Shown: positions 11,667 to 14,576 of the stretch, piece after piece
How positions within the stretch are numbered: position 1 is the first letter of the stretch
Layout of the letters: each line of letters begins with the position of its first letter
DNA from: an uncultured Chlamydiales bacterium
GTDB lineage: Bacteria; Chlamydiota; Chlamydiia; Chlamydiales; JAAKFR01
Length of the DNA stretch: 64,000 nt
Direction of reading: 5' to 3'
Assembly: GCA_963748195.1 (NCBI GenBank)
Contig: CAVVHU010000001.1
Coordinates: forward strand, 52,698 to 116,697
Program-made: the position numbers and the translations under genes
The notes under the pieces: generated by a model
Told to the model about the DNA's origin: nothing
The model's database searches: none
Seen by the model: only the letters and a program-made list of their open reading frames with translations

Positions 11667-14576
11667 TTAGACATGTACAGGAGTCTTAAAATAACTGTTC
11701 TTTGTTTCAATAGAAGGTGTTTTAGAATAGTTATTATCTATTCCTTGGTAATCAATAAGTTCTGAATTTTCGTGCTTGGAATAGAAGACATCAGGATAGT
11801 TTTCATCTTGATCGCGTGGAACAAGCTTTCTTTTTTCGAAAACCTCTGTCTTTTTTAGATCCCCAAAAAAGGCTTTCTGCTCATCTTTTCCGGAAAATGC
11901 TTTGAGATGACGCAACAGATTGCGCGCTTCCTTTATGCTTAAACGTGTCTCTGGATCCACATCCAAAAGACCTTTGACAATCTCATTGATACTACCTCGT
12001 TGTTGTAAGAACTCGATCCCGTTAAGCTTCTTTTGGAAATAATCGGTATCCCACTTAGTATATTTCTCCATTATATCGCATTGATCAAAGGGATAGATTC
12101 CTGTAGCTAACTCTAGAAGTGTCAGTCCGAATGCCCATGCATCGACTTTATCTGCTGCGATGAGATCCACGAGACCTCCTTGAGCACGTTGCCGACTTAT
12201 ATTAAGCCTTTCAGGAGAGAAGTAACGTGTATCCCCAATGACTGGCTCATCGATTTGCCCGTTTTTGAACTCTTTTGCGCATCCGAAGTCAATGATATAT
12301 ACCTCTCCTTTCATATCTAAAACGAGGTTTGAAAGCTTGATATCGAGATGGTAAATGCCAGCTTTGTGCATATAATAGAGGCCGTTGGCTACCCCTTGTG
12401 CGACATGTGTTAGGGGCTGAGGTTGTGTAGATTCAGCTGCATTAAGATGTGCTTGTAACTCTTCTCCATTGCCAAAACCTGCCAAAGGCATGAATTGATA
12501 AAGCACAGGCTCTCCTGTACTGCTAACACTCTCAACATGATCCCAAATTGGCATGATGTTGGGCTTGCCTTCGAGCTTGGCTTGCAAGATTCCCTCATTT
12601 CGGGATTCTTGGATTGCCTTTTCTCCCTTAACTTTCTTTACTCCAGCAAATACACCTGTCTCAAGATCGCGGGCAATTCGGAGTTTTCCAAAATTTCCTT
12701 CTCCAAGAAGGATTTTTGTCTTATTTTTTCCAGGTTGAAATGTGACTTCGATGCCGGTCTGGTCTAGAAGGGTTATGGCTTCATCGCTAGATATTTTGTT
12801 AATCAGCGCATACCTTCCGCCAATTTCTGTATGGCCTTTATTTTTCCTGGCGGGAGATAAAGTACTTCTAGAAGCTGCAGAAGTGTTTTTCTCATCTAAC
12901 TGATCTAAAGAAATGTCAGAATGACGATTCTTTGCCCGCAGCTTTAATAAAGCAAAACCTGTAGCTGCCAAACACGTGACACCGCTTACTGCGCCAATTA
13001 GAGGCCAGAGCCAGAAGATGGAATTATTAGAAGTTGAAGGAGATGCGCTTCCGGGTGGTTTTGAGCTAGTTCCGATAGGGCCAATTCTATTGGTTGATAT
13101 TAGGGTGGAAGTACTTGTGCCGGATATCCCTGTTGTGCTCGTGCTTATTGGTTTAATAGAAGTCGCATTGAATATTTGCCCAAAGACTCCAGAGCTATTT
13201 CCATCATGTCCGCTGTCGTCCTGCCAAGCGACCACAAAATCGCCATTGTTTAAAGAGGATGCCGAAGGGTAATACTGATTCCCGGGAGTGTATGTATTGA
13301 CCAGAAATTGGCCACCGACTTTACCTCCCGTCGCATTGAACATTTGACCAAAGACTCCATAACTGCTTCCATCAAGGCCGCTGCCGTCCTGCCAAGACTC
13401 CCAAGCAACCACAAAACCGCCATTGCTTAAAGTGGATACCACAGGTAATTCCTGATGACCTATCGTGTAGGTATTGATTTGAAATTCACTGCCGACTTTA
13501 GCTCCCGTTGCATTGAATATTTGACCAAATACTCCATCACCGCTTCCATCTTCGCCGCTCAGATCTGTCCACGTGACCACAAAATCGCCATTGTTTAAAG
13601 AGGAGACTGAAGGAAAAACCTGATTCCCAGGCGTGTATGTATTGACCTGAAATTGGCCACCGACTTTACCTCCCGTCGCATTGAATATTTGACCAAAGAC
13701 TCCATAACTGCTTCCATCAAGGCTGCTGCTGTCCTCCCAAGCAACCACAAAACCGCCATTGCTTAAAGAGGAGACTGAAGGGTACTGCTGATTTCCAGTT
13801 GTGTAAGTATTAACTTGAAATTCAACACTGATTTTAGCATCTGTCGCATTGAATATTTGACCAAAGACTCCGTAACCGCTTCCATCTTCGCCGCTCAGAT
13901 CTGTCCACGTGACCACAAAATCGCCATTGTTTAAAGAGGAGACTGAAGGGTACAATTGACTTCCGATCGTGTAAGTATTGACTTGAAATTCAGTACCGAT
14001 TTTAGCGCCTGTCGCATTGAATATTTGCCCAAAAACTCCCCAAGCGCTTCCATCTTCGCCACTGTCATCCGCCCAAGCGACCACAAAATTTCCACCCCCT
14101 AAAGAAGTTGCAGAGGGGAATGTTTGATTTCCAGGGGTGTATGCATTGACTTGGAATTCACTGCCGACTTTAGCTCCCGTCGCTTTGAATACTTGCCCAA
14201 AAATTCCTGTACTGTTTCCATCGAGGCCGCTGTCGTCAGTCCAAGCAACCACAAAATTTCCATTGCTTAGAGAGGAGACTGATGGCCCTCCCTGATTTCC
14301 AGGAGTGTATGTATTGACTTGGAATTGTCCCCCAACCTTCTTTTGTGCAAGCGCCCGCGGAAAACACGCGCTTAAGCCCACAAAGAATGGAAAAGGATGT
14401 TTTGTGGCGAGGGAAACTACTAGCCCACTCGCGAGGGCAGGAATACAAGAGTTACTAAAGACGTTATGCCTAACGCGATCAACTTTCTCATCAGAGAGAG
14501 AACTTATTACAAGTCTTTGTGAACCAAGAAATGGAATGGGAGTTACTGCTCCTGCAGAAAAATGTGAGACAGACAT
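11667..14576 (-). CDS. paralog C: receptor-like Ser/Thr protein kinase with N-terminal repeat ectodomain, single TM and C-terminal Hanks-type kinase
   Basis: 969-aa ORF. N-terminus ~97% identical to paralog B over the first ~110 aa. Eight 57-aa repeats, TM WLWPLIGAVSGVTCLAATGFALL, then a kinase with G-loop LGEGNFGKL, Lys in AGVKKV, catalytic HLDIKLSNLVL, DFG, and SPE/DAWAFG motifs. Confidence 0.8.
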   Translation of the reverse strand: MSVSHFSAGAVTPIPFLGSQRLVISSLSDEKVDRVRHNVFSNSCIPALASGLVVSLATKHPFPFFVGLSACFPRALAQKKVGGQFQVNTYTPGNQGGPSVSSLSNGNFVVAWTDDSGLDGNSTGIFGQVFKATGAKVGSEFQVNAYTPGNQTFPSATSLGGGNFVVAWADDSGEDGSAWGVFGQIFNATGAKIGTEFQVNTYTIGSQLYPSVSSLNNGDFVVTWTDLSGEDGSGYGVFGQIFNATDAKISVEFQVNTYTTGNQQYPSVSSLSNGGFVVAWEDSSSLDGSSYGVFGQIFNATGGKVGGQFQVNTYTPGNQVFPSVSSLNNGDFVVTWTDLSGEDGSGDGVFGQIFNATGAKVGSEFQINTYTIGHQELPVVSTLSNGGFVVAWESWQDGSGLDGSSYGVFGQMFNATGGKVGGQFLVNTYTPGNQYYPSASSLNNGDFVVAWQDDSGHDGNSSGVFGQIFNATSIKPISTSTTGISGTSTSTLISTNRIGPIGTSSKPPGSASPSTSNNSIFWLWPLIGAVSGVTCLAATGFALLKLRAKNRHSDISLDQLDEKNTSAASRSTLSPARKNKGHTEIGGRYALINKISSDEAITLLDQTGIEVTFQPGKNKTKILLGEGNFGKLRIARDLETGVFAGVKKVKGEKAIQESRNEGILQAKLEGKPNIMPIWDHVESVSSTGEPVLYQFMPLAGFGNGEELQAHLNAAESTQPQPLTHVAQGVANGLYYMHKAGIYHLDIKLSNLVLDMKGEVYIIDFGCAKEFKNGQIDEPVIGDTRYFSPERLNISRQRAQGGLVDLIAADKVDAWAFGLTLLELATGIYPFDQCDIMEKYTKWDTDYFQKKLNGIEFLQQRGSINEIVKGLLDVDPETRLSIKEARNLLRHLKAFSGKDEQKAFFGDLKKTEVFEKRKLVPRDQDENYPDVFYSKHENSELIDYQGIDNNYSKTPSIETKNSYFKTPVHV

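Follow-up and report, generated by a model that had tools for sequence, protein, structure and literature searches.

A Receptor-Like Hanks-Type Kinase with a Propeller Ectodomain in a Chlamydial Genome and Its Modular Family with Relatives on Probable Giant-Virus Contigs

Transmembrane kinases of the Hanks type are usually described in bacteria with the kinase first and the sensor last. In PknD of Mycobacterium tuberculosis, a Hanks kinase is followed by a transmembrane helix and an extracellular NHL beta-propeller. The order ectodomain–transmembrane helix–juxtamembrane region–kinase–tail is found in eukaryotic receptor Ser/Thr kinases, such as plant receptor-like kinases (RLKs), transforming growth factor beta (TGF-beta) receptors, and the transmembrane kinases (TMKs) of Entamoeba; plant immune receptors (the non-RD pattern-recognition receptors) have, in addition, a non-RD catalytic loop. 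The receptors described earlier from Acanthamoeba and giant viruses are of the kinase-cyclase-kinase type (PMC4053784). Here, we analyzed a stretch of 64,000 nucleotides from an uncultured Chlamydiales bacterium (contig CAVVHU010000001.1, positions 52,698 to 116,697), hereafter referred to as the window. One of its genes, designated gene A, encodes a membrane protein built in the eukaryotic receptor-kinase order, with an outside propeller, one transmembrane helix, and an inside Ser/Thr kinase. The initial annotation of this DNA had already pointed to the inversion relative to kinases of the PknB/PknD type, and the inverted order was found both in gene A and in its relatives. Beyond that annotation, gene A belongs to a large modular family that has a sister clade on contigs of probable giant-virus origin, and it is part of a tandem array with two kinase-less copies.

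Gene A is an intact open reading frame (ORF) of 969 amino acids (aa) with an ATG start, located at 11667..14576 on the minus strand of the window, as are all of its parts; residue numbers refer to the 969-aa protein. The ORF listing, the Pfam kinase match, and an identical entry of the public collection (P0158) all describe a complete receptor-like kinase gene. P0158 has been placed in a 90% cluster represented by the 55-aa peptide P0159, and the gene A protein therefore never shows in homology-search listings. The protein begins with a polar N-terminal peptide conserved in paralogs and orthologs (residues 1–38, MSVSHFSAGAVTPIPFLGSQ...; 14463..14576), followed by a weakly hydrophobic bipartite segment (residues 39–77; 14346..14462; Kyte-Doolittle hydropathy 1.35–1.6), which ends with RALA|QKK, a signal-peptidase-like −3/−1 motif. 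Residues 78–478 (13143..14345) comprise seven 56-aa repeats, a 7-bladed beta-propeller ectodomain according to repeat parsing and AlphaFold2. A stalk with 60% of Ser, Thr, and Pro (residues 479–520; 13017..13142) leads to the single strong transmembrane helix (residues 521–544; 12945..13016), modeled as a helix by AlphaFold2 as well; stalk and helix had been read in this order by the initial annotation. Behind the helix lie the positive flank KLRAKNRH with a conserved juxtamembrane module recognized in the family alignments (residues 545–622; 12711..12944), a Hanks-type Ser/Thr kinase of the non-RD type (HLDIKLSN) identified by Pfam, motifs, and structural matches of the eukaryotic protein kinase (ePK) fold (residues 623–885; 11922..12710), and a disordered C-terminal tail (residues 886–969; 11670..11921) with a predicted local distance difference test score (pLDDT) below 50. 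The tail carries ENYPDVFY, YSKTP, and YFKTP, motifs of the kinds enriched in family tails. In the full-length AlphaFold2 model, the propeller and the kinase were confident, and the stalk, transmembrane helix, and tail were of low confidence.

The transmembrane helix (FWLWPLIGAVSGVTCLAATGFALL) had a Kyte-Doolittle value of 1.96 and is followed directly by KLRAKNRH, i.e., it is a stop-transfer segment with a positive cytoplasmic flank and a C-terminal domain inside, as in a type I protein. In the receptor-like relatives, Lys and Arg residues numbered 4.33 after the juxta-kinase helix vs. 0.94 before it, and the excess after the helix was found in 49 of 49 of these proteins. By the positive-inside rule, the kinase was therefore placed on the cytoplasmic side in gene A and in all 49 relatives. 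The stalk is likewise a family-wide trait: in the same 49 proteins, the 65 residues preceding the helix contained 45% of Ser, Thr, and Pro vs. 22% elsewhere.

The Pfam model Pkinase (PF00069) matched residues 623–885 with an E-value of 2.4e-35 and 122.6 bits (cut-off 31.7). Every catalytic motif named in the initial annotation was located, namely the G-loop GEGNFG (625–630), the Lys in AGVKK (644–648), HLDIKLSN (743–750), DFG (763–765), and YFSPER (785–790). The full set of Hanks/ePK superfamily features (G-loop, Lys, alphaC Glu, HxDxKxxN, DFG, APE-like motif, subdomain IX Asp, and subdomain XI Arg) was present, and the kinase residues invariant in the columns of the family alignment were all kept. 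The kinase of gene A is predicted to be active. Its fold and catalytic motifs are shared with the PknB/Stk1 PASTA kinases and with chlamydial PknD and Pkn1, but it scored far under the corresponding NCBIfam cut-offs. The PknB/Stk1 family was rejected by the score of NF033483 (71 bits vs. the cut-off of 450), the lack of PASTA domains, and the inverted order; chlamydial PknD was rejected by the score of PRK13184 (28 bits vs. 839). The kinase thus falls outside the ordinary PknB-like clade.

An affinity to the tyrosine kinase-like (TKL) group or to RLK/Pelle kinases, which the eukaryotic layout had suggested in the initial annotation, was not confirmed. PF07714 gave 55 bits vs. 122 for PF00069, and the top 60 PDB sequence matches together with the top 50 Foldseek matches of the kinase domain were CAMK, STE (STE20), AGC, and Aurora kinases, not IRAK, RLK, or TKL; this verdict was drawn from the Pfam scores and from the nearest solved structures and sequences. 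The family profile gave 87–99 bits with plant CIPKs (CAMK-like), 55–85 bits with bacterial PASTA kinases, and at least 210 bits with family members, in a comparison where three of the reference sequences (PknB, PKA, and CDK2) provide a rough guide only. On these scores, the kinase of gene A is neither PknB-like nor TKL/RLK-like and appears to form a deep clade of its own. A recent horizontal acquisition of a TKL/RLK-type receptor Ser/Thr kinase from a protist is accordingly very improbable in our estimate. The layout does resemble that of eukaryotic receptor kinases, and the family profile scored slightly higher on CIPKs than on PASTA kinases; however, the nearest eukaryotic proteins remained below 100 bits, PF07714 stayed far under PF00069, and the structural neighbors were of the CAMK/STE/AGC groups. 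Unlike eukaryotic receptor kinases, gene A combines its kinase with a bacterial ectodomain, has no canonical signal peptide, and lies in a chlamydial chromosome with the GC content of its neighbors; moreover, its family is old within Chlamydiota.

Repeat parsing delimited the seven 56-aa repeats at residues 84–480. AlphaFold2 modeling of the ectodomain alone yielded 7 blades of 4 strands (28 strands) with a pLDDT of 87.8 and a predicted template-modeling score (pTM) of 0.90. The closest solved structure was the 7-bladed propeller of CylK (PDB 7fh7/7roo; Foldseek E-value 1e-14, template-modeling score 0.73–0.78, 14% identity), followed by sialidase-like and lectin propellers. CylK is a Friedel-Crafts alkylase; unlike gene A, it is a soluble cyanobacterial enzyme with a Ca-binding N-domain, and gene A shows no evidence of its catalysis. 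No Pfam model covers the repeat. The full-length search recovered thousands of proteins sharing the repeats only, from Proteobacteria, Planctomycetota, Bacteroidota, and others. The repeat homologs in these proteins are joined to RTX, cadherin, VCBS, dockerin, or type IX secretion system (T9SS) sorting domains, which are markers of surface or secreted proteins; the RTX, T9SS, cadherin, and dockerin partners indicate that the propeller is an extracytoplasmic domain. By model and homology, the ectodomain of gene A is best described as a 7-bladed, CylK-like propeller module that is very widespread in extracellular proteins of bacteria. It is under purifying selection (dN/dS ~0.36 between paralogs). 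Of the N-x-T sequons claimed for every blade, FNAT was present in six of seven blades, and blade 1 has FKAT instead. The ectodomain contains 10 sequons in total, which did not exceed chance (7.3 ± 2.4 in a composition-preserving shuffle, p ~0.17), and the paralogs have 5 and 6. The idea of N-glycosylation was rejected on this count and on the lack of sequon conservation in the paralogs.

At E ≤ 1e-28, a search with the kinase region yielded no more than 24 relatives, of which one is annotated as Chlamydiae; beyond these, the scores fell to plant CIPKs (E-value 1e-13) and PASTA kinases (E-value 1e-7). An exhaustive profile search gave ~402 clusters (50% identity) at E ≤ 1e-30. We defined the family by a score of at least ~200 bits with profile A1, including the juxtamembrane module, a transmembrane helix ~200 residues before HxD, and a C-terminal kinase. 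Gene A, the seed of profile A1, has all of these features; its orthologs P0003, P0006, and P0017 scored 535–565 bits, and full-length orthologs were found at 62% identity. The juxtamembrane module, HTxIGxxYxLxxKISxxEAxxLxxQTGIxVxF, is kept in alignments A1, A2, and A4 as well as in the viral clade alignment A5. Among the best 150 clusters, the order ectodomain–transmembrane helix–kinase was found in at least 49, where a receptor-like architecture was called for proteins that have over 300 residues on the N-terminal side, a strong transmembrane helix ~200 residues ahead of the catalytic loop, and the kinase at the C-terminus. The non-RD form (HLD) was present in 108 of the 140 clusters of this set with a readable catalytic loop. 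In another 21 of the best 150 clusters, an N-terminal kinase is followed by long regions of the NB-ARC/NACHT/TPR type. N-terminal kinases of this clade were also seen in proteins lacking transmembrane helices and carrying NB-ARC/NACHT and TPR regions (STAND-type), represented by L019 and L020 (Parachlamydiales), P0141, and P0142. Judged by their domain content, the STAND-type kinase proteins add a cytosolic architecture to the receptor-like one of the family.

Ectodomains are swapped within the family and include the propeller of gene A, LVIVD, FG-GAP, He_PIG Ig domains, and many unannotated types. As a whole, the family reverses the usual bacterial order and consists of receptor kinases of eukaryotic order with interchangeable extracellular propellers. 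In species-representative genomes, the matches were mostly from metagenome-assembled genomes (MAGs) of Chlamydiae, including Anoxychlamydiales and Parachlamydiales; the others were a bin labeled 'Caedibacter sp.', one MAG of an alphaproteobacterium, and a few short contigs placed in other bins. Caedibacter is a protist endosymbiont. At least 13 family copies were found in K940_chlam_7, a chlamydial MAG from marine sediment; its loci L002, L004, L005, L008–L012, L014, L017, L018, and L021 contain many LVIVD propellers instead of the gene A repeat, some of them doubled or tripled. This distribution and diversity point to a long history and diversification of the receptor-kinase family in Chlamydiota. 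No description of the family was found in the literature searched, which is no proof of novelty; apparently new are transmembrane Hanks kinases of reversed order, their modular propeller ectodomains, and their distribution among chlamydiae and giant viruses. The proteins of the family are directly accessible to tests of topology, secretion, kinase activity, and binding partners of the tail.

The initial annotation had described the N-terminus of gene A as signal-like and the protein as type I. The former did not hold, as segment 39–77 is weakly hydrophobic, conserved in sequence, and preceded by 38 polar residues, i.e., it is not a textbook signal peptide. Residues 1–38, modeled as a low-confidence helix, are conserved in the paralogs and also in orthologs, even where the latter have a long N-terminal domain; by composition only, the first 25 residues are high in Ser, Thr, Pro, Ala, and Gly with few charges. 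Most relatives have an unannotated, largely helical domain of 150–390 aa ahead of the hydrophobic segment, and a Pfam scan of these long N-terminal regions gave no domain match. Of this domain, gene A retains no more than ~25 residues at the beginning and ~15 at the end. Because most relatives have it, the N-terminus of gene A is not regarded as a canonical signal peptide, and the family plan would be N-in/ectodomain-out/C-in. The stop-transfer helix with its positive flank agrees with a type I protein, but strict type I topology was not supported; the topology of the family would instead be N-in/ectodomain-out/kinase-in, possibly with cleavage. Signal-peptidase-like endings precede unrelated types of ectodomains (RALA|QKK, NAHA|QPF, SVGA|QQF, SVKG|QSL, and AVAA|QRP).

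We tentatively favor the reading that the gene A product works as a receptor kinase of the bacterial inner membrane and exposes its propeller to the periplasm, to which we give a little less than an even chance. Sec/YidC would insert the protein into the chlamydial inner membrane, and segment 39–77 would serve as a signal-anchor, possibly cut after Ala77. Acting as a signal-anchor, it would leave the propeller in the periplasm and the kinase with the tail in the bacterial cytoplasm. A ligand bound to the propeller would shift the oligomeric state, and ligand-driven clustering would activate the kinase; since non-RD kinases are independent of activation-loop phosphorylation, the output would probably be governed by proximity. 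Besides cytoplasmic substrates, the kinase could phosphorylate the tail of its own protein and possibly that of the kinase-less paralog B, and the phosphorylated tail motifs might then dock cytoplasmic partners. Functionally, gene A would resemble a reversed PknD of M. tuberculosis. Both are single-pass Hanks Ser/Thr kinases with a beta-propeller sensor across the membrane, but in gene A the order is reversed and seven CylK-like blades stand in place of the NHL propeller; the non-RD kinase, the Ser/Thr-rich stalk, the Tyr-rich tail, and the separate clade also set it apart. If this role in the bacterial membrane is true, the family would add a novel class of kinases with periplasmic sensors to a phylum usually credited with very few signaling systems.

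Several observations weigh against a purely bacterial receptor. The export signal is atypical, with a polar n-region of 38 aa, weak hydrophobicity, strong conservation, and Lys/Arg at positions +2/+3; charges just past the cleavage site hinder Sec export in Escherichia coli. In L013 (Anoxychlamydiales KR126_chlam_5), a propeller of the gene A type occurs without any hydrophobic segment before it, a feature unexplained by the Sec-export model. Stalks reach ~200 Ser/Thr-rich residues (P0006), which is odd for a Gram-negative periplasm. The family is apparently confined to Chlamydiota, two alphaproteobacterial bins, and giant-virus contigs, and it was not seen among named free-living relatives within the Planctomycetota-Verrucomicrobiota-Chlamydiota (PVC) group. 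Finally, two kinds of tail motifs, Tyr-x-x-Thr-Pro and [ND]-Y-x-x-hydrophobic, occur far more often than by chance and recur in the viral proteins; they are more typical of host-directed proteins.

The viral proteins are five members of the HRD type from metagenomic contigs (P0241, P0253, P0258, P0267, and P0270), which form a sister clade and, as far as the sequences indicate, are the closest relatives outside bacteria. The nearest of these relatives lie on contigs with giant-virus hallmarks among the neighbor genes (L023, 8001..10742; L030, 2925..5771): P0241 adjoins an intein-interrupted RPB2 of the Pol II-like type, a collagen/H-lectin gene, and ORFans, and P0267 adjoins a poxvirus-type poly(A)-polymerase regulatory subunit (VP39-like, PF01358) and a long uracil-DNA glycosylase. 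Both contigs are probably of giant-virus origin. In the neighbor-joining tree, the five members clustered together in 199 of 200 replicates and were joined to the bacterial family before the outgroups in 190 of 200; the monophyly of the bacterial part of the family was weak (115 of 200). With only two outgroup sets, this tree gives no root for the family relative to the kinases of eukaryotes and bacteria. Hhalign produced one collinear alignment of the viral and chlamydial proteins across the ectodomain and the kinase with 97% probability; since it includes kinase rows, homology of the ectodomains is not proven by this alignment alone. Scans of IMG/VR with the chlamydial profile and with the viral-clade profile revealed no close relatives, so the giant-virus link rests on the two metagenomic contigs only.

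The single-kinase receptors of the viral clade share with gene A the juxtamembrane module, the kinase, the Tyr-rich tail, and the overall order, and they are of a different type from the kinase-cyclase-kinase receptors (PMC4053784). They differ from gene A by HRD vs. HLD, by classical signal peptides, and by many N-x-S/T sites in the ectodomains, noticed by reading the sequences and uncounted. The signal peptides were found in all viral-clade proteins with complete N-termini (P0253 seems 5'-truncated), and relatives of this kind indicate that the N-terminal part is exported in the receptor-kinase family. The viral proteins also have a very hydrophobic transmembrane helix and the tail motifs IYNTP and DDYQTG.

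Motifs were counted in 89 family tails, with expected values obtained by shuffling; kinship among the tails inflates the contrasts. Y.[KL]TP was observed 20 times vs. 0.2 expected, Y..[ST]P 43 times vs. 4.6, and [ND]Y..[VILF] 30 times vs. 10.9. The Tyr content of the tails was 6% vs. 3% in the kinase domains. The tail motifs recur in distant lineages, in the viral clade (IYNTP), and in the kinase-less paralog B.

Taken with the points above, these tails could fit a translocated receptor kinase similar to Tir or Inc proteins, a possibility that we take seriously without expecting it to hold. The gene A product would then be a type III secretion substrate residing in a host-derived membrane (inclusion, endoplasmic reticulum, or plasma membrane), with the propeller toward the lumen or the exterior and, on the side of the host cytosol, the N-terminal part, the kinase, and the tail. 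The kinase would phosphorylate host proteins, and the phosphorylated tail motifs would be read by host SH2-type or other adaptors. The phyletic spread, with Chlamydiota, two alphaproteobacterial bins (one of them Caedibacter-labeled), and the viral sister clade (190 of 200), speaks for such a role, as a viral copy must work inside a eukaryotic cell. The same is true for the enriched eukaryote-style motifs in the tails, viral tails and paralog B included, and 22 tyrosine kinases and 48 SH2 proteins are known from Acanthamoeba, a typical amoebal host (PMC4053784). The atypical export signal, the conserved extreme N-terminus rich in small and polar residues, the long N-terminal domain of most relatives, the long mucin-like stalks, the birth-and-death mode of the tandem array, and the copy expansions (at least 13 in K940_chlam_7) also fit translocation.

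The sequential order of N-terminal domain, transmembrane segment, ectodomain, transmembrane helix, and Tyr-containing tail mirrors that of Tir of enteropathogenic Escherichia coli (EPEC), and the acidic N-x-Y-x-x-V/I repeats recall the phosphotyrosine sites of Tarp and Tir. Tir has a trans-side domain of ~100 aa, whereas gene A has a propeller of 400 aa and a kinase of its own. Once injected by type III secretion, a propeller of 400–1000 aa has no known route across a host membrane. The juxta-kinase helix is strongly hydrophobic, as in ordinary inner-membrane proteins, and the AxA|Q-type endings suit processing by signal peptidase. The comparison with Inc proteins is also rather unfavorable to translocation. 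Their bilobal hydrophobic domain has 40–60 residues and consists of two transmembrane helices of 15–32 residues with a loop of less than 30 residues (PMC3048545). Segment 42–77 of gene A, with lobes of ~14 and 16 residues, TKHP between them, and a Kyte-Doolittle value of ~1.4, is at or below the lower limit of this domain, and segment 39–77 as a whole is shorter and weaker (PMC3048545). Moreover, a true hairpin there would bring the kinase to the trans side, contrary to the charge rule and wrong for a kinase in the host cytosol.

If the role in host membranes is true, these would be, as far as we know, the first receptor kinases delivered by a pathogen. A broader scenario, which we consider rather unlikely, is that self-encoded receptor-like Ser/Thr kinases are inserted into host membranes by Chlamydiae and, as an independent development, by giant viruses and other bacteria associated with amoebae. 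The propeller would look into the inclusion lumen or to the exterior, the kinase and its docking tail would signal in the host cytosol, and kinase-less paralogs would act as co-receptors or decoys, the genes being exchanged in the amoebal 'melting pot'. With either role, bacterial or host-directed, the family offers a tangible example of genes shared by chlamydiae and giant viruses.

Three tandem paralogs with 78–83% DNA identity lie on the minus strand, gene A being the first of them. Paralog B (693 aa, 9100..11181, identical to P0019) shares the N-terminus, propeller, stalk, and transmembrane helix; it has no kinase, and its tail consists of ~5 EAKYGDVADID repeats. Paralog C (609 aa, 6816..8645, identical to P0049) has the same ectodomain, and its ORF ends within the transmembrane helix. 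Three-frame translation revealed a decayed juxtamembrane region and kinase G-loop of C (GSGNFGKLRFARNFKAKEFVSLKK) past the stop codon (6621..6815), so C is a decayed receptor kinase. The array looks like a product of birth-and-death evolution, in which B and C lost the kinase. Kinase-less B and C beside gene A resemble the pairs of receptor-like proteins and RLKs in plants, where kinase-less receptor-like paralogs stand alongside the kinases.

The region upstream of A (14577..14748) has a near-exact copy upstream of B (11182..11353), as shown by a blastn self-comparison and an alignment of the upstream regions. The near-identical blocks of A and B extend over 14330..14748 and 10935..11353; dS was 0.049 in the 83 codons of the 5' end vs. 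0.56 in the propeller, and ~170 bp upstream are near-identical. The near-identity of the 5' codons and upstream regions points to a recent gene conversion that covered the promoter and the N-terminus.

Orphan fragments of family-type tails were noticed downstream of A and B, at ~11574..11642 (minus strand, ...HHEENYGDVYERVNGPVYGTVA) and at the 3' end of an ORF at 8737..9075 (minus strand, ...MYGPVYGTVA). These fragments are leftovers of older copies. Gene A itself might be regarded as a non-functional or decaying member of such a degenerating array, given that C is cut within the transmembrane helix with kinase remnants past the stop and that tail fragments occur in the intergenic regions. We give this hardly any credence: gene A is uninterrupted for all of its 969 codons and has retained each catalytic residue, its full-length orthologs are 62% identical, and its propeller evolves with a dN/dS of ~0.36. 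A short ORF between A and B (~11390..11488, minus strand, MTATEDYRSIAFLDFFEDLEDPRIDRHKLL...) had no Pfam match and may resemble the N-terminus of ISAs1-family transposases.

The remaining content of the window identifies it, by homology, as part of a chlamydial chromosome. YidC is of the long chlamydial type (PRK01001, 1040 bits vs. the cut-off of 670), and DnaA scored 634 bits with PRK12422, just under the cut-off of 657. The nearest named relatives of DnaA were 'Chlamydiales bacterium' MAGs (76% identity), with Parachlamydia at 56%. The neighbor genes are ordinary and include those for glycogen phosphorylase, YggS, FloA/NfeD, BamA, and TamB. GC content was flat across the region and similar in gene A and its neighbors. 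An Rfam scan of the window gave no match. Directly upstream of the array, a FloA flotillin-like gene and two NfeD-type genes are located at 15467..18512 (minus strand), with no evident functional link to it. An ORF of 265 aa at 18580..19377 (plus strand) had a weak match to Ulp1/C48 proteases (E-value 0.027, below the cut-off) and may encode a deubiquitinase-type effector similar to ChlaDUB. The window also contains a conventional chlamydial Hanks kinase (44392..46806, minus strand), which we take to be Pkn1-like; its kinase domain is N-terminal, followed by a C-terminal FGE-sulfatase/EgtB-like domain, and it provides an internal contrast to the domain order of gene A.

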